Assembly: GCA_964561455.1 (NCBI GenBank)
Contig: CAZLPS010000008.1
Span: forward strand, 23,307-87,306
Origin: an uncultured Opitutales bacterium
Lineage (GTDB): Bacteria > Verrucomicrobiota > Verrucomicrobiia > Opitutales > JABDGR01
Reading direction: 5' to 3'
Length of the DNA stretch: 64,000 nucleotides
Position numbers and translations under genes: made by a program. Shown piece by piece: positions 6,001 to 37,022 of the stretch. Within the stretch, counting starts at the first letter, position 1; each line of letters begins with the position of its first letter. The notes under the pieces were generated by a model. The model had not been told where the DNA came from, ran no database searches, and saw only the letters and a program-made list of their open reading frames with translations.

Positions 6001-9000
6001 CAGTGTAGGTGTTGTTGCCGGCCAGAATCAAATTCGTGCCGGGCGCGCCGAGGGCGGTGGAACCGGTGGCCGACACCACGCCCGCGCCATTCGATCCCGT
6101 CGCCAGCACCGGCGTAATCAGGGCTAAAATGGCCGTGCTGTTGGGGCCGGTGGTTAACGCATTCAAAACTTGGGTGGCGTTCGCATTTACCACGCCGGTG
6201 CCGCTGGTGCCCAGCGTCACCGTTATCGCATTGCCCGACACGGCGGCCGTCGTGCCGGTGTTGTTGCCGACGCCGTTCACATAGGCAATGGTAATGTTGG
6301 TGCCCGCGGTGCCGGCAAATGTGGTATTCGCCGTGTAACTCAAAGCCGAACCGGCCCTGGCATTACCCGTATTCAAAGTGTAAAGTGGCGCCGTCAGGTT
6401 CAACGGAGCCTGCGCCGTCAACGTGCCGGTGCCGTTCGAGCCAAGCGCCAGATTCGGCGTCACGAGGGCAAACGCATTGGGCGAAGCCAGGATGGCGGCC
6501 ACCACCGCCGCCGCGGTGTTATTGCCCGCCCCAGTACCGAGGTCCACCATGACCACATTGCCACTGACCGTCGCCGTGGCCGTCGTGTTGGTGCCCGAGG
6601 CCGTAAACTGCACGGCGACGTTCGCACCGGCCGCGCCAATATTACTCGGGGTGGCCGTGAACGTCAGGCCGGTCCCGTTGGCCGCCGAACCGGTGGTCAG
6701 TGAATAAATGCCGCTGGCATTCTGGCCGGCTTGTGTAACCGCACCGCCGCCGGACAGGATGGCTGAATAAAGAATGTCCAGTGGCTCGTTGAATTTCAAG
6801 GTGCCCGAATTGGTCAAGGGCGAATTGACCAGGAAGCCCGGCGTGGTGCCGTTGCCCAGTTGCAGCGTGCCGCCGGAATTATTCGTGGTTGGACCGGTGT
6901 AGGTATTGTTGCCCACCAGGGTCAGGCTGCCGCCGCCCGCGCGGATGACGCCGGCGACACCCGTCAATGGCGTGGACAATTGCACGTTGCTGCCGTTGGT
7001 ATCCAATGTGTCAATGTCGTTGGTGGGTCCGGCAATGAGGTTGGGATTCAGCACCAGGGAGATGTCCGTCGCCGTGCCGGTGGCCCATTGGATGCCGCCG
7101 CCCAGGAGATTCAGGCTGTACGTTCCGCCGCTCAGCGAAGTTGCGCCCAGCGCCGCCACCGTGCCGTTGCCAGCGCTGGTGGAGGTGTTGGCGGCCGTCA
7201 ACATGGCGTTCGCCGTGGCATTGCCGTTGATCAATTGGATGATCGAGGCCGCCGTCGCATTGCTCGTCCCGCCGGTATTGGACAAATTGACGGTGATGGT
7301 GTTGCCCACGATGGACAAATTCGAAACGGCCTGGCCGACATTCGCCGTCGAGTACGCGATGGTGATGTTGTTGGAGGGCGTACCCGGGACATCGGAGGTA
7401 AAGGTAATGCCATTGTTGCTCCCCACGGAACCCGTGCTCAGCGCCGCGTTAATCGCATTGCCAAAGCTCTTGATCGAGTTGAAATTAATCTTTCCGGCGT
7501 CAACGAAGGTGCCGCCCGTGAACGTATTGATGCCCGTGAGGGTCAACGTGCCGTTGCCGACTTTGATCAGCGAGCCATTGCCGCTGGTGTTGCCGGAAAT
7601 GATGCCACTGAAATTGCTATTCAAGTCGCCCTGGCCGATGGTCAAGGCCATTGCCCCGTTGCTGCCGTTGGCGAGGGCCAGATTGCCACTCCCGCTGATG
7701 CCACCCAAGGTTGCCGCCGACAAGGTGCCGAAACTCAGGACGCCGCCACCCGAGTTGACGCTGACAATGGCGTTTTGCAGCGCCAGCGGAACCCCGAGCA
7801 CCAGCGTGCCGCTATTCACGAATACGTTGCCGGAGAAAGTATTGTTGTTGGAAAGCGTCAGCGTCGTCGCCGTGGGATTGGCGCCATTGTTGAGGATAAA
7901 TGTGCCATTCGCGACGATGCCGGAGCCATTGCTGCCGCTGCCCAATGCCGCGTTGATAATGTTCGAAACATTCCCATTCAGGGCGTCGCGCACGTTGGTG
8001 GCATTGCTGGTGATGCCCGGGTCCACGCCGCCGAGCAAACTAAAGGTGTTCAGCGAGGAAACCGCCCCGGCGCCGGAGCTGCCGACCGCATTTGAAACCA
8101 CGACCAGATTGCCGGAGCTGGCGTTGGCGGCGATGGCCGCCGTCACATTGGCCGCCGTGGAAAGGGCCGTGTTAATGGTCGGCGTCGTGCCGCCGACCAG
8201 AGGCAGGGAACCGAGCACCGACACGACGCCGGAACCATTGCTCCCGCCCGCATTCGCGACGGTCACCAAATTGCCGGCCGCCGAGCCGTTCGCCACCGAA
8301 ATATTGCCAAACAAGCCGGCGATGCTCGTGGCCGTCGAAGTAATCGTGCCCCCGCCATTGGTCGCCAGAAACACCGTAATGGTGCTCGTGCCGCCCGCCA
8401 GGGGGACCGCGTTCGCCAGCGGCGCAACCACGCCACTGCCATTACTGGTGCTCGTATTGGCGGCGGATACCAAAGCCGCCGCCCCCGCATTCGCCGCGAT
8501 GGCGCTGATGACGTTGGCCGCCGTGGCACTAACTGCGCCGTTTACGTCGGTGCCGAGGGTGACAATCACCGTGTTGCCGCTCGCGAGGGCCGTGGTGGGC
8601 AAACTGTTGCCGTTGCCACTGACCAATTGGACCGAAACGTTGCTGCCGTAGATGCCGGCAATGCTGGCATTGGTGGAATTGGCACTGAACGTAATCCCGC
8701 TATTCGTGCCGACACTCCCCGTCGCCACACTCGCCGGGCTGGTGGCAATGGACAAGTTGGCCGTCGGATTACTCGCGCCGGGATTGGCGTACACGATAAC
8801 CACATTGCCATTATAGTTGGACGACTGCTTGGTCGAAGTATAGGTCAGGTCGGCCTGGCTCCCAAAGGTGGTGGAGGCGGTGGCATTGGCGCCGCTGTTG
8901 GCCACCGTCGCCAGATTCACGATGATGTTGTTGCCGTTCACAGTCGCGTTTACTGCCGCCTGATTGCTCAGCGGATTGGCATAAGTGATATTGATGGCAT

Positions 9001-12000
9001 TGCCGATGTTACCGAACTGGTTCGTCGTACCCGTCACGGCAGCGTTGTACGCCAAGTCGGCGTTATTGCCCAGGTTCGTCGTGACGGACGCCGCAGCGCC
9101 GTTGGCGTCCGTGGCCAGGCTCGTGGTAATGGCGGTAAGGCCATTCGTCAGGTTGCTGGCCGGCAATGCGCCGAGCACGCCGGTACCGGAGCCACTGGCT
9201 ACGACCAGCACTTGGGCGCTCGGGCTGGCATTGATGGCGGCAGAGATGTTCGCCGGCGTTTCCGTGGGGCTGACGACCCCGCCAGCGCTGGTGGCCAAAT
9301 TCACGATGATCAAATTGCCGCTGGTGGTGATGCTGCGGCTCACGGCACTGGTGGCATTGACGACATACTGCACCTGGATGCCATTGCCCAGGACGCCGTT
9401 CGTGACCGCATTGCTGGCGTTGGCCGTGTAGTTAACGGCGGTCGCGCCTGCGCCCGTCGTCAGATTGGCGGAGGAATTGGCGACCGTCACCGCCAGCGCC
9501 TGGCTGTTGGCCTCGGGGTTGACATAAGTAACCACAATGCCGTTGTTCCCCACCCCGCCGACATTGTTCGTCACATTGCCAAAAACGGCTGAGCGGATAT
9601 TCAAGCCCGTGTTGGTGATCGGCAAATTCGTGGCGTTTAGCGCCGCAACGCCCGGGTTCACGTTGATGTTGCCGTTGTCCGACAGCAGGCCGGAGAAGAT
9701 CGCGTTCGTGGGCTCATTGAAATAGAGGGTGCCGTTGGCCACAATATTGCCGGTCATGTTGCCGCCGCTGGAAGATACATTACCCAGGGAGAGCGTGCCG
9801 GTGTTGGTGGTCGTGCCGCCGGAGTAGGTGCTGGCCACATTGCCCGCCAAATAGAGGACGCCCGTGCCGCCATTGTTGAACAGCCGGGCCGAGCCGGTGA
9901 GGGGCGACTTCAGGGTGACGTCGTTGCCATTGGTGTTTAAGGTAACGCTGGTTCCCTGCAGGGCGCCGTTGGGATTCAGTATGCTCGACACGTCGGTGGT
10001 CGTGCCAGTCGCCCAGGTGAGGGTGGCATTGCTGATGGTCAGGTTGGGCGTGGCGCCGAAATTATTGTTGGCGTTAAACACGATGCTGCCGTTGGTGAGG
10101 AAGGTGGCGCCATTATAGGAATTCGGCGTTTGTAATGTCAGCGCGCCGGAACCAACCTTGGTCAGAGTTCCCTGCGTCGCGTTGCCCAAACCATGGATGT
10201 CGGTCAGCGTGCCATTAAACGTGGTGTTGACGTTGTTTTGGCCGACGGTGATGTTCACGGCGCCGGTGCCGGCGGCGTTGGAAAGATCAAGCGTGCCATT
10301 CCCCGCCAAACCGCCCAAAGTGGCATTCGAGAGCGTGCCAAAGCTCACCGAGCCGCCACCCTGCAGGATAGTCAGCGTGCTGTTTTGCAACGCCTGTGAA
10401 TTACCCAATTGCAACGTGCCGGCGGTGATGCCGGTCGGCCCGCGATAGGTATTATTTCCGGTCAGAGTCAGGACGCCACTGCCCGCCTTCGTAAAACCAG
10501 CCGGACCGGAAAACGCTTCGGACAGGGTGACATTGTTGCCGTTGGTGTCCAGCACGCTATAGTGCCCGCCGGTCGGCGTGATATTGGCGTAAGTTGTCAC
10601 ATTGGCGCTGCCGTTATTGCCCGGGGCCAGGCTGGCCGAGACCAAAGCGCTGGCGGTGGCATTGCCGTTGATCAACGCGGTAATGTTCGTGGCGGTGGCG
10701 TTTGCTCCTGCGTTGCTGCCATTACCCGCCGCAACAATTACGATATTAGTTCCGTTGATTTGCAAAACGGACGAGTTGGCAGCGTTGTCAAAGGTAACGC
10801 TTATGTTGACGAGATTGTTGCCGTTGGCGCCGGCCACGAGCGAGTTGGTCCCATTGGCGGTGAACACGATGGCGTTATTGAGTGCTCCGGGTGATGTAAC
10901 GCTGGCGTTGAAGCCATTGATGACGGGATTCAACTGGCTGGCCGGGTCAAGCGTGGTGCCCAAGCCCCATTGCAAACCGCCGCCCGCCAGGGAGATGCTG
11001 CTCGGGCCAAAGTTGTTCAATGAATTGAAATTAATCAGGCCGCCGGTGATTACCGTGCCGCCCGTATATTTGTTGGGCACATTGAAGGTCAGCGTGCCAT
11101 TGCCGGCCTTGACGAACGTGCCGTTGCCGCTGACCGGCGTGTTGAAGGCAACGTTGTTGTTATTGGTGTCAAACGTGTCGTTGCCCGAATTCGGCGTGAT
11201 GTTGCCGATAATTCCCCCAAACGGACCCTTCAGGAAGGCGGAGATATCGGTCGTCGTCCCCGTCGCCCATTGCAGGCCGCCATTAAAGAGCACCAAGTTG
11301 CCGCCGCCAAAATTGGACCCATTGGTGAAGTTGATCAGGCCGCCCTTGATCGTGGTGCCGCCGGTAAAGGTGTTGGTGCCGCTGAGCGAGAGAATGCCCG
11401 TACCCGTCTTCAACAAACTCCCGGAACCGAAAAGCACCCCGCTATACACCGGAGAGTTTTGGAAGCCACCGATGTTCAGTGTGACGGCATTGCCGCTAAT
11501 CGGGTTGGTCAAGGGGATGTTTTGGTTGCCGCTCAAGCCGCCAAGGGTGAAACTCGTGAGGCTCCCGTAGTTGAATAGTCCATTATTATAGACCAGCGTG
11601 GCGTTCGCAATGGCGTTGGCGCCGGTGATGGCCAGGGTCCCGCCGGCGATCACCACATTGCCATTGAAGGAGTTGGTGTTGCTGAGCGTCAACGTGGTGG
11701 CCACGGCAATTGAGCCACCGGTGAGGTTCGTAACAACCGCCGGGGCCAATAGTCCCGTTCCACTATTGCCCGGGGCCAGCGCGGCATTGATGATGGCCGA
11801 CGCCGAAACGCTGCCCGTGACACTGGTGTTGCTCAATCCCGCCAGTAAACTATTTGCCGTGGTGGTGACGTTCGGATTCGCGCCGCCGGTCAGATTCGTG
11901 GCGACCAGCGGGTTCACCTGGCCGTTGCCATTCCCGGCCACGGTCGTCGTAACCAAAGTCGCGGCGACCGCATCCACCGCCGTTTTAACCGCACTTGCGG

Positions 12001-25379: not shown

Positions 25380-27512
25380 ATGAGAAATTCCTGCGCCCTT
25401 CGTCCACGGCTCCCGGCCCTATCCTTAATGGTTTATGCGCTGGTTTTATCCGCCGTGCTGCGCGGAGCCGATGCCGCACCTGCCGACCCCACCACCCCGG
25501 TGGCGTTCCCGTCCGCGCCGGCTGCCGGCCCCGCTGACCCCTGGGCCGTCGTGAATACCACCGCCGCCACCAACCTCGAACAAGTCATCTGGACCGGCAA
25601 GGAATTCGTTGCCGCCGGGGGAAATGTGGTCGTGAATTCGCCTGATGGCTTGAATTGGACCGCCCATGGCGTGGGCAATGGCAAAATGAGCCTCCTAAGC
25701 GTCGCCTACAACGGCAAGGAGTATGTGGTGGTTGGGGCGAACGGAGCCATCGCGTCCTCGCCCGATTTGAATTTCTGGCAATCCCACGAAACCGGCGCCG
25801 TGCGCAAGTTTTCCCTCGTCGTCTGGACCGGAAATAAATTTTTTGCGCTCGGCGATGTCGGCGCCAAAGCCTTTTCCCCGGATGGCGTCACTTGGACCCT
25901 CGGCCCGTCCTCGGGCAACGTGTATTACACCCACGGCGTGTGGAGTGGCACCCAGTTGGTCCTGGGCTCGGCCAAAAACCTGTTCATCTCCAGTGACGCC
26001 GAAAACGTTTCCCTTGCCAAAGGCAATGTGGGCGCGATGCACGATGTGGCCTGGGGTCGGAACCTTTTTGTCGCCGTCGGCGACACGAAGAATGGCGTGA
26101 TGGTTTCGGCAGACGGCGCCAGCTGGGCCGCCCAGAACCCCGGCTTGAAAAACATCCTTTACGGCGTGACCTGGACCGGACAACAATTTGTGGCCGTCGG
26201 CGAAGCCGGCACCATTATCTCCTCGCCTGATGGCACCGTCTGGAAAGCCGCCGCCTCCGGCACCAGGGAAACCCTCACCAGCGTGGCCGGGAACGGCACG
26301 GTGTCTGTCGCCGTGGGCAAAAACGGCGCCATCCTCAGCACCAATGCAAAATTGCTGCAAAATTATCACAGCGCCTCGCTGAGTTCCCTCCCACCAGCGC
26401 CGGGCCAGCGCTTCGGGCCCGCCTCCGGCGGCGGCCCGCTCGACCATTGGACCGTCACCGATGACACCGACACCCGGCCATTCATGCAAATCGCCTGGCT
26501 GAATAATCAATTCGTGGCCACCAGTTGGGACCGTGTTCGCAATTCAGGCGATGGCTTTTCCTGGAACACCCACACCCTTACCGGCCGGTCACTTAACAGC
26601 ATTGCCACCAACGGCAGCCTCTTTGTGGTCGTCAGCGATGTCGGCGAAATTTCCACCTCCCCCGATCTGGAAAAGTGGACCAAACGAACGAGCAGCACCA
26701 CCCTCCGCCTCTTCAGCGTCTTGTGGACCGGCACCCAATTCGAGGCCCTGGGTGACAACGGCATTATCGTCACCTCGGCGGACGGGATCAAGTGGACGCA
26801 GTAATCCCCGTTCACTAGCGCTACTTTTCACCATGGCCTGTGGGCCGGCGACAAGTTTGTCCTCGCGGACTACCGCGGCGTGGACACTTCTCCGGATGGT
26901 CTGAAATGGAGCCGGACGCTCGGCACCACCGATAAAATGATGGACGTTGCCTGGAACGGCAAAGTCTTCGTTGCCGTTGGCTCCGTCGGGGGCGGCGTCT
27001 ATTCCTCGCCTGATGCCGTGACTTGGACCAAGCAATCTCTCCCCACCAACAACGGCTTTGCCGCCATCACTTGGACCGGCAGTGAATTCCTGGCCGGAGG
27101 CGCCACCGGCATCCTCGCCAGTTCGCCGGACGGAACGGCGTGGACCATTCACCTCCTCGATCCCGGCTTCAACATTACCGCCCTCGCGGCCCACAATGGC
27201 ACGGTGGTGCTGGGAACGGATGCCGGAATGCTTCTCATCAACAAAGTGCCTGACTCCACCGCCACGCCCGTGATTTCCCTTGATGTCGGGTCCGCCGGCG
27301 CCCTGGCCCAAGTCACCCTCCATTCCCCGGTTGCCAGTGCAAAGATTTATTACACCGACAATGGCCAGGACCCCACCCCTCAGTCCAACCTCTACACCAC
27401 GCCATTTACCCCGACCCACAACGCTGTCATCAAAGCCCGCGCCTACCTCGATGGCGTCAATCCCAGCGAGGTCGCCGCCGCCGAATTTAAAATCGGCGCC
27501 AGCACCCCCTAG
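25380..27512 (+). pseudogene. third Asp-box beta-propeller + CHB_HEX_C paralog (two-module type) interrupted by one in-frame TAA at 26802-26804
   Basis: ORFs 25290..26804 and 26880..27512 are in the same frame (26880-25290 = 1590). Reading through the TAA gives ...TSADGIKWTQ*SPFTSATFHHGLWAGDKFVLADYRGVDTSPDGLKW... This aligns with ...SSPDGLTWTTGPRTTTVTFHHGLWTRGQF... of the first paralog. ATG 25380 gives MRNSCALRPRLPALSLMVYALVLSAVLRGADA (signal-like). Confidence 0.75.
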
Positions 27513-27644
27513 CTCCGGATCTTTGGCAAAGCCGCCAACCCCCATCCGCAAACATCGAACCCTCGACTTCCATCTTGTAACTTCCCCATTCCCCACACTT
27601 CGTTCTCGCCAATCATTCCAAATTTAGTCTCCTGTCTCACCATT

Positions 27645-27665
27645 TCAAATCTCAAATCTCAAATC
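27645..27665. repeat. perfect tandem heptamer (TCAAATC)x3
   Basis: tcaaatc tcaaatc tcaaatc, read directly from the sequence. It lies in the intergenic region after the third propeller paralog. Confidence 0.95.
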
Positions 27666-27701
27666 CTGCGCCGCCCCCTCCGCCCTTCGCCCTTTGATTA
27701 C

Positions 27702-27729
27702 AATTCGAAATTCGTAATTCAGAATTCCC
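27702..27729. repeat. degenerate tandem heptamer array AATTCnn x4
   Basis: aattcga aattcgt aattcag aattccc. Confidence 0.9.
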
Positions 27730-27743
27730 GCCCGCGCCTTCCT

Positions 27744-27778
27744 TTCTTAATTCTTAATTTTTAATTCTTAATTCCCCC
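27744..27778 (+). repeat. tandem heptamer array (TTCTTAA)(TTCTTAA)(TTTTTAA)(TTCTTAA)(TTCCCCC) abutting the ATG of the triple-YbjQ gene
   Basis: Read directly from the sequence. The array stays in register right up to ATG 27779. Confidence 0.95.
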
Positions 27779-28933
27779 ATGACTCCTCCCCCTCAACTCC
27801 GCTCCGTCCTCACCGGTCTTTCCGGCAACGAAATGTTCTGCTTGCGCCAAAAGGGTTTTTCGCCCGGCGACATCGTCGTCGGCAACAGTGTTCACTCGAT
27901 GGGCTTCCTGGGCGGCCTCGGCGCCGGCCTGCAACGCGCTTTTGGCGGCGAGGTCACGCAAGTCACCGACATCATTCATGAGGGCCGCCAGGCTTCGTAT
28001 GCCCGCATGGCCAAAGAAGCGCAAGACCGCGGCGGCGTGGGAATTGTCGGCGTCACGAGCGAATTAAAGCACATGCGCGGCAATATCGAATTTCTCTCCG
28101 TCGGTTCCTGCGTCCATACGACGGATGGCGGCCCTGAACAAATGGCCTTTACCTCCGATTGCGACGGCCAGGAACTCTATTGCCTCATGGACGCCGGCTA
28201 CACCCCGGTGAAATTTGTCTTCGGCAATGTCGCCTACTCAATCGGCATCGGCGGCGGTTTGATGGGCGGCTTCAAAAGCCTCTCCCGCGGTGAAATTCGC
28301 GAATACAGCGACGTCTTCAATGCCACCCGCCACCTCGCCCTCGACCGCATCATGAAGGAAGCGCAGGCCGCCGGCGCCAATGCGGTGCTTGCGATTGAAA
28401 CGCGCATCATGCCCTTCCAGGGCGTCCACGAAATGCTCATGATGGGCACGGCCGCCCGCCATCCCGCCCTGCCCGACAATCTCCTCCGCGGCCAGCCGGT
28501 GACCAGCGACTTGACCGCTGAAGAATTGTGGAATCTCGCCAACATGGGCTACGCGCCCTTGAAGCTCGTGCTCGGCACGGCCGTCTATTCGCTCGGCGTC
28601 GTCGGCGGCATTATGGCCGCCTTGAAATCTTTTGTGCGCGGCGAAATTAGCGATTTAACCTCCTTAATCTACGACGCCCGCGAACACGCCCTCGGCCTCC
28701 TCAAACGCGAAGCCGAAGCGCTCGGCGCGGACGACGTCGTCGGCATCCGCACCCACGTTCACGAATTCCAGGGCCTCCTCGAATTCATGGCCATCGGCAC
28801 CGCGGTAAAGCGCTTGCCCGGCATTGGCACCGTCAGCCCAACCCTCCCCGCCCAAGCCATCATCCGCGACCGCGAAACCTGGATCAGCGACGACGACTTG
28901 TTCAACGTGCGGGTGGATGATCAGGGGAAGTGA
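27779..28933 (+). CDS. triple YbjQ/UPF0145 (putative heavy-metal-binding) domain fusion protein
   Basis: Three consecutive roughly 110-125-aa units each carry the YbjQ pattern. Examples are ...GGEVTQVTDIIHEGRQASYARMAKEAQDRGGVGIVGV...SVGSCV, ...RGEIREYSDVFNATRHLALDRIMKEAQAAGANAVLAIE...MMGTA, and ...RGEISDLTSLIYDAREHALGLLKREAEALGADDVVGIR...AIGTAV. Confidence 0.75.
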   Translation: MTPPPQLRSVLTGLSGNEMFCLRQKGFSPGDIVVGNSVHSMGFLGGLGAGLQRAFGGEVTQVTDIIHEGRQASYARMAKEAQDRGGVGIVGVTSELKHMRGNIEFLSVGSCVHTTDGGPEQMAFTSDCDGQELYCLMDAGYTPVKFVFGNVAYSIGIGGGLMGGFKSLSRGEIREYSDVFNATRHLALDRIMKEAQAAGANAVLAIETRIMPFQGVHEMLMMGTAARHPALPDNLLRGQPVTSDLTAEELWNLANMGYAPLKLVLGTAVYSLGVVGGIMAALKSFVRGEISDLTSLIYDAREHALGLLKREAEALGADDVVGIRTHVHEFQGLLEFMAIGTAVKRLPGIGTVSPTLPAQAIIRDRETWISDDDLFNVRVDDQGK

Positions 28934-33347: not shown

Positions 33348-33387
33348 TTCTTAATTCTTAAATCTTAATTCTTAATTCCCAAATCCC
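33348..33387 (+). repeat. tandem heptamer array (TTCTTAA)(TTCTTAA)(ATCTTAA)(TTCTTAA)(TTCCCAA)ATCCC abutting the ATG of rpsG
   Basis: Over its first 33 nt it differs from the array at 27744-27776 at only 2 positions. A TCAAATCTCA copy lies 40 nt upstream (33308), echoing the arrangement at 27645. Confidence 0.95.
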
Positions 33388-33861
33388 ATGTCCCGCCGCC
33401 GCCGAGCAGTCAAACGTGAACGCGCCATTGATCCGCGTTACAACAGCCCATTGGTCACCCATTTGGTCAGCACCATCATGCGCGGCGGCAAAAAGACCGT
33501 CGCCCAGCGCGTGGTTTATGGCGCTTTTGAAAAGGTCAGCGAGAAGCTCGAAAAGGGCGATCCGGTGGATCTCCTCATGGGCGCGATGGAAAACGTCCGC
33601 CCGAAACTTGAAGTGAAGAGCCGACGTGTGGGCGGCGCCACCTACCAGGTGCCTGTCGAAATCTCGTTTGAGCGCCAGCAGAGCCTTGCCTTTCGCTGGC
33701 TCGTCGAGGCCGCCCAAGGCCGCAAGGGCATGCCCATGCGTGAAGCCCTCGCCGCTGAAATCGTGGATGCCTACAACAACACCGGCACCGTCGTGAAAAA
33801 GCGCGAAGACGCCCACCGCATGGCCCAAGCCAACCGGGCGTTTGCCCATTTGCGCTGGTAA
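33388..33861 (+). CDS. rpsG: 30S ribosomal protein S7
   Basis: [40 protein letters not shown]...[18 protein letters not shown]...AFAHLRW is the S7 signature. Confidence 0.98.
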
Positions 33862-33880
33862 TGCTTCGCTGAGGCCAGAT

Positions 33881-33912
33881 TATTGTTATACTGCTGTATT
33901 GTTATATTGTTA
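33881..33912. repeat. tandem octamer array TATTGTTA / TACTGCTG / TATTGTTA / TATTGTTA in the rpsG-fusA spacer
   Basis: Read directly from the sequence. An inverted copy (TAACAATA within atacaacaatttaacaata, 33944-33962) lies downstream. Confidence 0.9.
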
Positions 33913-34020
33913 GGCAGCCCAACGGCGGAGTCGTCCCGCACCCATACAACAATTTAACAATAGGGCCGTCATCCCGGCACGAGAACCCCAAGTCTTAAAA
34001 CACCAAACAACTTTCCCGCC

Positions 34021-36201
34021 ATGTCCGCACCCGCACCCGCCACCGCCCTGCCTGCCCTTTCGCCCGCCAATTCGCCGACGCGCCGCTTCCCCTTGGAATA
34101 CACGCGCAACATCGGCATCGCCGCCCACATTGACGCCGGCAAGACGACTACCACCGAGCGCGTGCTCTTCTATGCAGGCGTCATTCACAAGATGGGTGAC
34201 GTACATGACGGCAACACCGTGACCGACTGGATGGAGCAGGAGCGCGAGCGCGGCATCACCATCACGGCTGCCGCCATTTCCGCCGGCTGGACGACCAAGG
34301 AAGGCCCTTATGTCGGGATCGCCCACACCATCAACATCATTGACACCCCCGGCCACGTGGACTTCACGGCCGAGGTCGAACGCTCCCTCCGCGTGCTCGA
34401 CGGCGCAATCGCCGTGTTCTGCGCCGTCGCCGGCGTGCAGCCCCAGTCCGAGACGGTCTGGCGCCAGATGAACAAGTACCGCGTCTGCCGCGTCGCCTAC
34501 GTCAATAAGATGGACCGCACGGGCGCTAATTTCTTCAAAGCGCTTGACGACATCCGCACCAAGCTGCGCGGCAATGCCCACCCGCTGTACATTCCCTACG
34601 GCGCGGCCGACACATTCAACGGCGTCATTGACCTGGTGAAAATGGTCCTCTGCGAATACGACCCGACCGACGTGAGCGGCGTGCGCTACTTCGAAAAACC
34701 CATTCCCGAAAGCCACCTGGCCGAAGCGAAGCTGTGGCGCGACAAGCTCATCGAAGGCCTCGCCGACTTCGATGACGCCCTCGCGGAAAAATTCCTCGAC
34801 GGCAAGGACGTCAGCATTGACGAGCTCCGCAGCGTCATCCGCAAGGCCACCCTCACGGAAAACTTCGTCGGGGTCATTCCTGGCAGCGCACTGAAGAACA
34901 AGGGCGTGCAAATGGTGCTCGACGCCGTCGTCAACTACCTGCCCAATCCGATCGAAGCCCGCCCGATGATTGCCCACCGGGACGACGAAACCACCACGGA
35001 AATCGTTCCCGACGACAAACACAAGGCCATCGGGCTCGTCTTCAAATTATGGACCGACCAGTTCGTCGGCCGCCTGGTCTTCTTCCGTCTTTACGCCGGC
35101 ACGCTCAAGAAGGGCGACACCATGTACAATCCGCGCACCCGCCGCACGGAACGCATTTCGCGCCTCCTCTTCATGAAGGCTGATGAACGCCTCGACGTCG
35201 ACGCCATTTACTCCGGCGACATTTGCGCCATTGTCGGCGCCAAGGACGTCGTGACGGGTGATACGCTCTGCAATGAAGATCTTGATCTGCGCCTCGAGCC
35301 GCCCACCTTCCCTGAGCCCGTCATTTCGATGTCCATTGAGCCGAAGACCAAGGCCGACCAGGAGAAGCTCTCCATTGGCCTGCAGCGCCTTGCCTCGGAG
35401 GATCCGACCTTCCGCCTCACCTCCAATCCCGAAACCGGCCAGACGATCATCGCCGGCATGGGTGAGTTGCACTTGGAAATCATCCGCGACCGTCTCTTCC
35501 GCGAATTCAAGGTTGAAGCCGATGCCGGCCGCCCGCAAATCGCTTATCGCGAAACGATCACCAAGTCCTCCAAGGGCGTGGGTAAATTCATCCGCCAATC
35601 CGGCGGCAAGGGCCAGTACGGCCACGCCGAAATCGTCCTTTCGCCCAACGGCAAGGGGAAGGGCAACGAAGTCATCAATGAAATCGTCGGCGGCACCATC
35701 CCGAAGGAATTCATCAAGCCCACCATCGAGGGTTTCCACGAAGCCGCCAACAATGGCGTCGTCGCCGGCTACCCGGTGATCGACTTCAAGGTGCAGCTCG
35801 TCTTTGGCTCCTTCCACGAAGTGGACTCCAATGAAATGGCGTTCAAGATGGCCGGCATTTTTGCGTTCAAGGACGCGATGAAGAACTGCGCGCCCATTTT
35901 GCTGGAGCCGATCATGAAGGTCGAAGTCGTCACCCCGGAAGAATACCAGGGTGACATCATGGGCGACCTCAACCGCCGCCGTGGCCAGATTCAGGGCATG
36001 GAGACCAAGAACGGTCTCGTGTACATTGCCGCGAACGTGCCGCTGGAAACGATGTTCGGCTATTCGACGGACGTGCGCTCCCTCTCGAAAGGCCGCGCCT
36101 CCTACTCGATGGAGCCGTCGCACTTCGAGCAGGTGCCCGCCAGCCTGCTGACCAAAATCGTCGAAGCCAACGCCTCCCGCGGCGCCGCGCGCACCATCTA
36201 A
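34021..36201 (+). CDS. fusA: translation elongation factor G
   Basis: RNIGIAAHIDAGKTTTTERVLFY (G1 motif), DTPGHVDF (G3) and NKMDR (G4). At 726 aa it has full EF-G length, with a roughly 20-aa Ala/Pro-rich N-terminal extension. Confidence 0.97.
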   Translation: MSAPAPATALPALSPANSPTRRFPLEYTRNIGIAAHIDAGKTTTTERVLFYAGVIHKMGDVHDGNTVTDWMEQERERGITITAAAISAGWTTKEGPYVGIAHTINIIDTPGHVDFTAEVERSLRVLDGAIAVFCAVAGVQPQSETVWRQMNKYRVCRVAYVNKMDRTGANFFKALDDIRTKLRGNAHPLYIPYGAADTFNGVIDLVKMVLCEYDPTDVSGVRYFEKPIPESHLAEAKLWRDKLIEGLADFDDALAEKFLDGKDVSIDELRSVIRKATLTENFVGVIPGSALKNKGVQMVLDAVVNYLPNPIEARPMIAHRDDETTTEIVPDDKHKAIGLVFKLWTDQFVGRLVFFRLYAGTLKKGDTMYNPRTRRTERISRLLFMKADERLDVDAIYSGDICAIVGAKDVVTGDTLCNEDLDLRLEPPTFPEPVISMSIEPKTKADQEKLSIGLQRLASEDPTFRLTSNPETGQTIIAGMGELHLEIIRDRLFREFKVEADAGRPQIAYRETITKSSKGVGKFIRQSGGKGQYGHAEIVLSPNGKGKGNEVINEIVGGTIPKEFIKPTIEGFHEAANNGVVAGYPVIDFKVQLVFGSFHEVDSNEMAFKMAGIFAFKDAMKNCAPILLEPIMKVEVVTPEEYQGDIMGDLNRRRGQIQGMETKNGLVYIAANVPLETMFGYSTDVRSLSKGRASYSMEPSHFEQVPASLLTKIVEANASRGAARTI

Positions 36202-36204
36202 AGC

Positions 36205-36232
36205 GATTTATGATTTAAGAATTATGATTTCG
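36205..36232. repeat. degenerate heptamer array GATTTAT GATTTAA GAATTAT GATTTCG just after the fusA stop
   Basis: Read directly from the sequence. Confidence 0.85.
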
Positions 36233-36292
36233 GAAGCATTTCCGCCATCAAAATTCTCCTTGCGCATTTCCGCGTCTTTGCCACTCTTAACC

Positions 36293-36320
36293 AAGAACTA
36301 AAAACTAGAAACTAAAGCAC
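36293..36320. repeat. degenerate heptamer array AAGAACT AAAAACT AGAAACT AAAGCAC upstream of rpsJ
   Basis: Read directly from the sequence. Confidence 0.85.
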
Positions 36321-36427
36321 TTTTCCTCCCCGTTCTTTTCCAGTTTGATGATTTCTGCTGTTTGGGCGCCCCCGGCGTCCCAAAAGAGAACGCGGACGCA
36401 TTTTTCTCCTCCCAACACTTCCCTCCC

Positions 36428-36739: not shown

Positions 36740-36925
36740 TGGTTCGCCGCAGGCGAGTTTTGTTTTGGTCAACGATGATTCGGCTCCCGGGCAAATCCGC
36801 TTCGGGAACTTGCTCAAGCGCGCAGGTCAACGCGGCCTGAATTTTCTCGATCCTAGTGGGCCACACCCGCATTCGAATGGCGCCTCCGTGGCGTGGGGAA
36901 TATTCTAATCGAGCAGAATTTTCAG
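36740..36925 (-). pseudogene. decayed DUF5615 (Mut7-C/PIN-like toxin-type) gene remnant
   Basis: Minus-strand translation from 36925 gives LKILLD*NIPHATEA.... DUF5615 proteins typically begin MK.LLDEN.P, and the TAG at 36907-36905 sits where the conserved E would be. After a frame change, ...IEKIQAALTCALEQVPEADLPGSRIIVDQNKTRLRR resembles the family C-terminus (..g.ivvve..r.Rir). The middle of the gene is missing. Confidence 0.4.
36741..36767 (+). terminator. possible weak intrinsic terminator after rpsJ
   Basis: ggttcgcc-gca-ggcgagtt forms a stem of five Watson-Crick pairs (TCGCC/GGCGA) extended by three G-T wobble pairs. It is followed by a TTGTTTTGG T-rich tract. Confidence 0.35.
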
Positions 36926-36932
36926 GTTCGCA

Positions 36933-37022
36933 TCAGACACAGGTGAAGATCTGTTCTTCACTCACTATTTCAGCGGTGAAGGCCAGCGCGGCGCTGACAT
37001 CCTCTGAAGTCAATTGGCGGCT
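36933..37022 (-). pseudogene. C-terminal remnant of a DUF433 (antitoxin-like) gene
   Basis: The minus strand directly after the TAG of the PATR gene reads SRQLTSEDVSAALAFTAEIVSEEQIFTCV*. This matches the DUF433 C-terminal helix pattern (..Lt.edi.aaLaYa.e...). The remnant's TGA stop overlaps an ATG immediately upstream of the DUF5615 remnant, consistent with DUF433-DUF5615 pairs that often overlap. Confidence 0.45.

Follow-up and report, generated by a model that had tools for sequence, protein, structure and literature searches.

The sequence considered here is a window of 64,000 nt, the whole stretch of DNA analyzed, from an uncultured Opitutales bacterium (contig C8:23307-87306 of assembly GCA_964561455.1, hereafter G000). 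The assembly comprises 4.79 Mb in 249 contigs, has a GC content of 59%, and is 87.5% complete. Our subject is the leader of a YbjQ-family gene, in which four tandem arrays of 7-nt units are stacked. Positions refer to the window, and all features described in it are read on the + strand. A 266-nt spacer at 27513..27778 separates a gene encoding CHB_HEX_C and Fn3_assoc domains from the YbjQ-family gene at 27779..28933, which starts with ATG and encodes a 384-aa protein with three YbjQ_1 (PF01906) domains. Both independent gene calls on other assemblies and the orthologues back ATG 27779 as the true start. The arrays are covered by no open reading frame (ORF), and the sense strand of the spacer contains 9.8% G and 37.6% C.

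An earlier note on this DNA reported three different arrays with a period of 7, the last of which runs in register into the start codon. These three are reproduced by a sequence read and by Tandem Repeats Finder (TRF), and a fourth that had been missed is present as well; together the four occupy 27645-27778, with 2.7-4.4 copies and 91-100% matches by TRF. Farthest from the gene is TCAAATC x3.0 (27645..27665; TRF, 100% matches), which has no G on its sense strand and is polymorphic in copy number. The additional array, CCCTTCG x2.7 (27676..27694; TRF), is GC-rich; its core, CCTTCGCCCT, is common to the orthologous leader of the congeneric genome G004, and a related unit, CGCCTTC, is the unit of a start-adjacent array in G002. 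The third array, at 27702..27729 (27702-27720 by TRF), reads AATTCGA/AATTCGT/AATTCAG/AATTCCC with an AATTCNN core and is absent from the G004 leader. The last, at 27744..27778, consists of TTCTTAA x4, with TTTTTAA as the third unit, and a degenerate TTCCCCC; it too is free of G on the sense strand, and it ends at the start codon. The TRF call for it is x4.4 at 27744-27774, after which come TTCCCCC and then ATG 27779. Its counterpart in G004 is TTCTTAA x3 plus TTCCCCCC.

The register is as reported, with exactly 11 heptads spanning 27702 to the ATG and with the AATTCGA-type array, the TTCTTAA array, and the ATG in one phase. The description of the arrays as different holds only in part, because the AATTCGA-type and TTCTTAA arrays have an AATTC core and a terminal AATTCCC unit in common; judged by their sequences, these two seem to be related arrays that have diverged. 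The AT-rich islands recorded earlier are borne out, with a GC content of 23-32% in the arrays, 69-79% in the stretches between arrays, and 60% in the window as a whole.

Chance can be excluded as the source of this stack, because four arrays are observed in 134 bp for which 0.004 are predicted from local dinucleotide shuffles and 0.15 from the intergenic density of the genome. Several known types of element were also considered and rejected. The leader RNA has a predicted minimum free energy (MFE) of -9.9 kcal/mol over 211 nt, which is no better than that of its shuffles (z = +0.41), and there is no significant inverted repeat in the spacer (27513-27778), only weak A-U pairing of 72%; with this folding energy and no inverted partner, a hairpin of the repetitive extragenic palindromic type, an inverted-pair hairpin, or a terminator in the leader is ruled out. 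The earlier dismissal of a clustered regularly interspaced short palindromic repeat (CRISPR) array stands, as the units are 7 nt long and contiguous rather than 23-55 nt long with unique spacers. Rfam covariance models gave no match at E <= 1 in 27300-28000.

Period-7 arrays across the genome

The earlier note treated the arrays as a property of one leader, but they belong to a genome-wide class. The comparison with shuffled controls that it had proposed was made with TRF, applied to the entire assembly and to three shuffled versions in which dinucleotides were preserved within 150-bp blocks. Arrays with a period of 7 number 1156 in the real genome and 136-155 in the shuffles, an excess of ~8-fold, and the multiples of this period are raised too, with 313 arrays of period 14 versus 25-47 and 84 arrays of period 21 versus 3-10. 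Periods that are multiples of 3 are elevated in coding DNA only. With genes taken from a simple home-made codon-usage caller (3663 genes, 83% coding), 915 of the 1156 period-7 arrays (79%) are intergenic in a genome that is 17% intergenic. A threshold-free lag test of base identity has intergenic peaks at 7, 14, 21, and 28 nt (0.290, 0.281, 0.279, and 0.267 versus ~0.26); coding DNA gives the 3-nt period alone.

The intergenic arrays are built from ~158 canonical units, of which the commonest are AAGGATG (73), AAGAATT, which is the TTCTTAA unit (70), and ACAGGAG (46). Arrays accumulate almost only in intergenic DNA, and they cluster in the same spacers: 68 spacers contain at least three arrays (39.6 +/- 5.4 expected), 37 contain at least four (14.8 expected), and 66 carry at least three different units. 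The YbjQ leader is one of several dozen stacked spacers, and further ones occur in the window at 58.7-58.9 kb, ahead of rpsG, and past fusA. Contig ends lie inside arrays of period 7, 14, or 21 in 39 of 498 cases, versus ~5 expected, and the longest assembled array, GTTTCGC at C51:28892-28993, has 14.6 units. Long arrays are probably under-assembled, and because arrays break assembly, the counts given here are lower bounds.

Two general causes can be set aside. Target-site duplications yield 2 copies, not 3-14, and the 5' flanks of the 87 TTCTTAA arrays in the genome are mutually unrelated, which led us to reject the footprint of a miniature inverted-repeat element or other transposon. Loss of mismatch repair was rejected as well, because MutS is present in G000 and in its relatives, whether these are rich in arrays or free of them.

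Array placement and the context of start codons

The units differ in where they sit. In same-strand spacers, the TTCTTAA unit (AATTCTT) is found 37 times in the sense orientation and 9 times in the antisense orientation, and ACTCTTC is found 12 times and once, respectively. For sense TTCTTAA arrays the median distance to the start is 10 nt, with 66% of them within 30 nt, and ATTTTCC, AAATCAT, ACTCTTC, and ATCCTTC are start-proximal as well. The distance exceeds 100 nt for other units, namely CCTGTCT, AAGCTGG, ACGGTTT, and AAATCTC (the TCAAATC unit). The order in the YbjQ leader, with TCAAATC far away and TTCTTAA against the ATG, is the typical one, and the same stacking recurs in the catalogue of 87 TTCTTAA arrays. 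A second array of this kind, TTCTTAA x4.4 plus TTCCCAAATCCC at 33348..33387, stands directly before the rpsG start (ATG 33388) in the rpsL-rpsG-fusA operon. TTCTTAA arrays show a slight preference, rather than a fixed rule, for being in register with the ATG: in 12 of 44 cases (6.3 expected, p = 0.018) a whole number of 7-nt steps separates the last unit from the start, and the rpsG array is out of register with its ATG.

These placements are found in a genome that lacks a Shine–Dalgarno (SD) signal, SD use being judged here from upstream motif statistics, as the 16S rRNA gene is missing from the assembly. Among 2149 ATG genes, SD 4-mers occur in only 6%, without a positional peak, and G drops to 15-18% from -20 to -1. 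The start context is marked instead by C at -1 (63%), at -2 (52%), and at -4 and -5 (39%) and by T at -7 (36%). Because the start caller used no upstream sequence, this signal is independent of the caller. The absence of an SD-like purine run before ATG 27779, which the earlier note had pointed out, is therefore a property of the whole genome. In most relatives within the order, the rpsL-rpsG spacers are likewise pyrimidine-rich, end in CC ATG, and have no SD, and some Verrucomicrobia are classed as "SD-scarce" in a published survey (PMC10783764). A TAnnnT box ending at -7 is ~3-fold enriched before starts in G000, which hints from sequence that a minority of mRNAs may be leaderless. The genome encodes a six-domain S1 protein. 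A cold-shock-domain (PF00313) gene was found neither in G000 nor in nine relatives of its family (G001-G009); outside this family, the search covered 31 genomes of the order, 10 of which have one.

Leaders with an array no more than 30 nt from the start are poor in G (11.6% versus 22.5% in other leaders) and are predicted to fold weakly, with a 75-nt MFE of -6.4 kcal/mol versus -15.7 in other leaders and -21.5 in coding windows. The genes behind such proximal arrays have a codon-usage score of 0.306 versus 0.261 (p = 5e-10 in a restricted set). Fragments of TTCTTAA are enriched near starts even in leaders in which no array was detected, the heptamer CTTAATT ~13-fold.

Composition changes along the spacers as well. 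Across same-strand spacers, G and purines make up 28% and 61% of the sense strand in arrays near the upstream stop and 7% and 32% in arrays near the downstream start (Spearman rho = -0.52, p = 3e-37). AAGGATG, TTAAGAA, and ATGATTT, the units on the stop side, lie a median of 0-4 nt from the stop and are reverse complements of start-side units, and 56 same-strand spacers have a purine-rich array 0-7 nt past the stop together with its reverse complement immediately ahead of the following start. Pairing between the ends of these 56 spacers is predicted at -27.1 kcal/mol versus -16.2 kcal/mol in cross-spacer controls (p = 1.6e-7) and is strongest in rpsE-rplO (G000:C76:5783-5931, -56.9 kcal/mol). 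About 10% of all arrays have a reverse-complement partner, and the bracketing pairs are concentrated in ribosomal-protein operons. On the basis of these modeled pairings, the paired ends may be translational-coupling or processing stems. The YbjQ spacer, whose arrays are confined to the start side, counts among the unpaired ones.

Slippage, turnover, and neighboring spacers

Independent assemblies of the same species were retrieved by exact-protein look-ups, and in such assembled contigs minority alleles are hidden. One of them, L043 (ENA ERZ27245402), has 0 substitutions relative to the window over 4.16 kb, and its sole indel is one unit of the TCAAATC array (3 -> 2), so that the comparison of copy numbers between strains suggested earlier did uncover a difference in the YbjQ leader. 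This change falls in the start-distal array, 114 nt from the ATG. Another, L162, matches contig C76 with 99.68% identity over 13.2 kb and has two indels, one of which is the loss of a TTCATCC unit (-7 nt) from the array before rplO. In the remaining near-identical contigs the arrays are identical, which gives 2 unit events in ~75 kb of near-identical strain comparisons. Metagenome pattern scans anchored in the sequences that flank the TCAAATC and TTCTTAA arrays returned no match, from data in which records of this or a very near genome were possibly excluded. The arrays are born and resized by slippage, one 7-nt unit per step. Gain and loss of units is visible against a near-zero background of substitution and does not appear to reach the hypervariability of contingency loci.

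At ~90% strain identity, arrays overall are no better conserved than other intergenic DNA (22% versus 18% differences), and the start-proximal block alone is more conserved. In the rpsG leader, diverged strains have 3 differences in the 41 nt from array to ATG versus 31 in the 107 nt of the rest of the spacer (Fisher p = 0.004), and strains with ~8% nucleotide difference in rpsG retain the TTCTTAA array, imperfect third unit and all. When the YbjQ leaders of G000 and the congeneric G004 are compared (87% protein identity), a single block, CTTAATT(T/C)TTAATTC(T/C)TAATTCCCCC, stands out as well conserved.

Among relatives, which are a sample and include some incomplete genomes, the trait is patchy and lineage-specific in amount and unit. 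TTCTTAA doublets number 123 in G000, 28 in G004, 17 in G013 (a member of another family), 4 each in G002 and G007, and 1-2 in three further genomes; the other 33 genomes searched have 0. In samples of 20-100 kb, period-7 arrays occur at 24 per 100 kb in G000, 22.5 in G040, 17.5 in G013, 8 in G004, 5 in G008, and 0 in G003, G019, and G025, with a shuffle baseline of ~3. Most arrays turn over within the genus.

The str operon and its surroundings provided several further observations. In the rpsG-fusA spacer (33862-34020), a period-8 array of TATTGTTA x4 (33881-33912) faces a complementary AACAATA-type segment at ~33947-33965. Strains with identical S7 have three unrelated versions of this spacer, and in two of the strain versions, as well as in G002 and G004, a short array lies opposite its own complement; the architecture of the spacer is thus conserved and its sequence not. 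Upstream of rpsG, L054/L045 (an ENA ERZ27245396 contig) and the window are identical, but the contig has 95% nucleotide identity in rpsG and the rpsG-fusA spacer type of a diverged lineage (compared with window 33388-35700), a mosaic that points to recombination between co-occurring strains within the str operon. In the fusA-rpsJ spacer, GATTTAT and AACTAAA arrays occupy the stop-side half (36205..36316). The ~105 nt before rpsJ (36322-36427) are nearly invariant between ~90%-identity strains and contain a GC-rich hairpin-like segment, GGGCGCCCCCGGCGTCCC; this block has no Rfam match and is a candidate ribosomal-protein leader or attenuator. Farther on, the diverged strain L053/L055 carries at 8383-9325 (window ~36740-37020) a pair of genes for a helix-turn-helix protein and a DDE_3 transposase between rpsJ and a PATR adhesin-like gene; the pair is missing from the window, which indicates an insertion sequence polymorphism. 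Elsewhere in the window, the intergenic segment 31613-31768 gave the only sub-threshold Rfam matches, to sX7, tfoR, P6, and sX6 (22-29 bits, below the gathering scores), and the coincidence of four unrelated models suggests some generic feature and not a true member of one of the families.

Interpretation and comparison with known systems

We favor, with a probability of roughly 55%, an explanation in which the arrays arise by slippage and the start-adjacent TTCTTAA array is kept as an unfolded, SD-independent initiation region. Selection would act on which array sits where, and only G-poor (A/U/C) units on the sense strand would be kept beside gene 5' ends. The start-adjacent TTCTTAA array and its C-rich CCCCC-AUG context would together form a translation-initiation region that works without SD pairing: a G-free array could not fold, and the 30S subunit would thus load on single-stranded RNA, plausibly through the encoded six-domain S1 protein. 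Repetition itself would probably be a by-product of the way the sequence is generated and not a code for a dedicated factor. The TCAAATC, CCCTTCG, and AATTCGA arrays would then be labile spacer or filler of the 5'-untranslated region with the same slippage origin. An unstructured, A/U-rich initiation leader was among the roles offered in the earlier note, and for the start-adjacent array the suggestion is supported by the lack of an SD signal in the genome, the weak folding, the halved G content, and the block conserved at rpsG and in G004.

A number of observations weigh against this explanation. The orthologous YbjQ leaders, which the earlier note had proposed as a check, are divided: G004 keeps the TTCTTAA block, the leaders of G001 and G003 (81-82% identity) have no arrays, and in that of G002 (89% identity) at least six CGCCTTC units abut the ATG, from which it follows that TTCTTAA is dispensable. 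Because any region before a start is expected to be conserved, the conservation described above supports an initiation region and not a need for the repeat. The rpsL-rpsG spacer is 15-50 nt long and without arrays in most relatives and ~140 nt long in the family of G000, and the arrays before the rpsG ATG are of the TTCTTAA type in G000 and G002 and of the AAGCACT type in G004 and G008. In the fusA-rpsJ spacer, a ~90%-identity strain has unrelated arrays in place of the start-distal ones. Convergent spacers contain 0.95 arrays per kb versus 1.25 per kb in same-strand spacers. Of 39 tRNA genes, 12 have arrays within 80 nt, with G-poor arrays adjoining the 5' end and purine-rich arrays following the 3' end (C25:19569-19682, tRNA-Val; C145:6004, tRNA-Glu; C38:16086, after tRNA-Gln), and because these untranslated genes show the same polarity, the polarity is a general trait of gene or transcript ends and is not tied to ribosome binding alone. 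The codon-score link could come from gene-call quality or transcription-linked slippage and not from selection, and the start positions from the home-made gene caller are approximate. In the YbjQ spacer, neither a promoter nor a terminator was found, there being no sigma-70-like match on the + strand, and transcription of the arrays before YbjQ would follow only by analogy with arrays inside operons.

Many of the same observations would be expected if all four arrays were neutral debris of slippage, by-products of a tolerated 7-nt bias, with the patterns of placement and strand reflecting only a general constraint toward G-poor RNA 5' of any gene and the repeats themselves adding nothing. This is the main rival, unlikely in our judgment but the one to be taken most seriously. 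The fast turnover between species, the array-free orthologous leaders, the outright replacement of start-distal arrays at ~90% strain identity, the patchy distribution among relatives, the presence of arrays in convergent spacers, and the shared polarity of tRNA genes all agree with it, as does the depletion of G in array-free leaders too. It accounts less well for unit-specific placement, with TTCTTAA at a median of 10 nt from starts, for the retention of TTCTTAA blocks at rpsG and in G004 while the adjoining spacer diverges, for the company that proximal arrays keep with strongly codon-adapted genes, and for the recurrence of the TTCTTAA unit at 87 loci. The arrays could also act in DNA rather than in mRNA, as part of a promoter (an AT-rich UP-like element, a spacer, or a -10 box) or as sites for a nucleoid protein. 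At C145, a perfect TTGACA before tRNA-Glu is followed by a spacer and a -10-like box (TAGCTT) that both come from the array, untranslated tRNA genes are flanked by arrays, the bases of arrays near strict promoter matches lie mostly upstream of -35 (393 versus 35), and the TAnnnT peak ending at -7 hints at a subset of leaderless mRNAs. We nonetheless hold this idea to be improbable, as arrays are also found at positions internal to operons, such as rpsL-rpsG and the S10/spc cluster on C76, at which a promoter would not be expected, the YbjQ spacer has no sigma-70-like match on the + strand, a 7-bp period sets successive sites on different faces of the helix, and the promoter statistics are thin, with only 41 strict matches (TTGACN-N16-18-TAnnnT).

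The other two roles offered in the earlier note fare worse. Multivalent binding by an RNA or single-stranded DNA protein, with one protein or domain per 7 nt controlling translation or mRNA stability, would fit the strand bias of the arrays relative to genes, which is compatible with reading at the RNA level, and S1, which is encoded here, as well as cold-shock protein (Csp) and CsrA, have been proposed for start-adjacent heptamers elsewhere (MacGregor 2015). Yet the arrays are imperfect, ~158 units in one genome would need many readers, orthologous leaders differ in the unit they carry (TTCTTAA, CGCCTTC, and AAGCACT types), and the search for a cold-shock-domain gene found none in G000 and its nine family relatives, all of which makes a dedicated reader very improbable. 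As for slippage-prone contingency tracts, slippage is borne out by the single-unit differences between near-identical strains in the YbjQ leader and before rplO. That frequent gain and loss of units switches or tunes the downstream gene is, however, barely credible: only 2 unit events were seen in ~75 kb, arrays mostly do not differ between strains and are just 2-5 units long, the genes concerned have housekeeping functions (rpsG, rplF, rplO, rplQ, guaA, and tRNA genes), and the event in the YbjQ leader occurred in the array farthest from the start, 114 nt from the ATG. For the heptamers of Xanthomonas, the same negative conclusion was reached (Rehm 2015, PMC4692102).

A more speculative and quite doubtful reading would make the arrays a modular system coded by position. 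G-free units would load ribosomes, and the number of units would tune initiation; stop-side complements would pair with them, and a terminating ribosome would melt the stem and so couple translation across spacers of 100-250 nt, or else the pairs would mark RNA-processing sites. If true, such a system would explain the polarity (rho = -0.52), the 56 bracketing hairpins, and their concentration in ribosomal-protein operons.

Regardless of function, the arrays bear on several practical and general questions. Start-codon choice without SD is only partly understood, and the Verrucomicrobiota have barely been studied for initiation. Here a natural series of leaders is available that consists of countable modules, from 0 to ~7 TTCTTAA units together with other units, all with a C-rich CC-AUG context. 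The arrays also break short-read assemblies and confuse start-codon calling. Because single units vary between otherwise identical strains, the arrays could be used as strain markers in metagenomes.

With other SD-scarce bacteria, G000 shares the absence of SD enrichment and the lower GC content and structure before starts. Bacteroidota have an A-rich start context, whereas that of G000 is C-rich (-1, -2), and in G000 a subset of leaders is built from tandem heptamers. Initiation independent of SD, with unstructured leaders, has been described in Bacteroidota and other SD-scarce bacteria (PMC3155529, PMC10783764). The contingency simple sequence repeats (SSRs) of Haemophilus and Neisseria resemble the arrays in that they are tandem repeats changing by whole units through slippage. 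However, those SSRs switch at high frequency and form long tracts, with units of 1-5 nt, within the ORFs or promoter spacers of surface genes, whereas the arrays of G000 are short, have 7-nt units, accompany housekeeping genes, and change rarely.

Tandem heptamers themselves have precedents, although the Verrucomicrobiota are not mentioned in the heptamer-repeat literature cited here. The short tandemly repeated repetitive (STRR) sequences of heterocystous cyanobacteria have the heptanucleotide units CCCCAGT, TTGGTCA, and CAACAGT. Neither these units nor the published TAACTGA, GGGAATC, and GGGGAYT units form arrays in G000. In the class of long SSRs, as the work of Mrazek 2007 is summarized in PMC4679880 and PMC4692102, heptanucleotides are the most over-represented in many bacteria, are intergenic, and are attributed to a preference of polymerase slippage for this length; going by that summary, G000 is similar in its tandem 7-nt units, their genome-wide excess, their intergenic location, and their changes in length by whole units. 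The heptamers GGGAATC of Xanthomonas and GGGGAYT of Nostoc are ~90% intergenic, frequently form inverted pairs able to make stem-loops, and vary in length between close relatives without a link to phase-variable genes (Rehm 2015, PMC4692102), and a Nostoc preprint places heptamers near start codons and speculates on regulatory roles. As in those genomes, the coding strand in G000 is G-rich just after stops and C-rich just before starts. Unlike those G-rich, quadruplex-forming units, the arrays of the YbjQ leader are AT-rich, are G-free on the sense strand, and have no inverted partner. Membership in the G-quadruplex/i-motif heptamers was ruled out, as the TCAAATC and TTCTTAA arrays contain no G and the published units are not arrayed.

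A close counterpart is the TAACTGA repeat of marine Beggiatoaceae and of some Cyanobacteria and Bacteroidetes, which stands directly before starts that lack an SD (MacGregor 2015, PMC4679880). A translational role was proposed for it, with S1, Csp, and CsrA as candidate readers, and the cold-shock domain is the one protein class reported to bind heptamer repeats, with one protein per unit (PMC4679880). As in that system, 2-6 forward heptamers in G000 lie a few nucleotides from the start in place of a recognizable SD, they precede housekeeping genes including those for ribosomal proteins, and strains differ by indels in 7-nt steps. The TAACTGA system has one unit per genome, whereas G000 contains no TAACTGA doublets and has ~158 units, unit-specific positions, and stacked spacers, in a member of the Verrucomicrobiota. 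Overall, the arrays of the YbjQ leader belong to a class already known in other phyla, and what differs here is the phylum, the number of units, their unit-specific positions, the G-free units on the start side, and the stacking of several arrays in one spacer.

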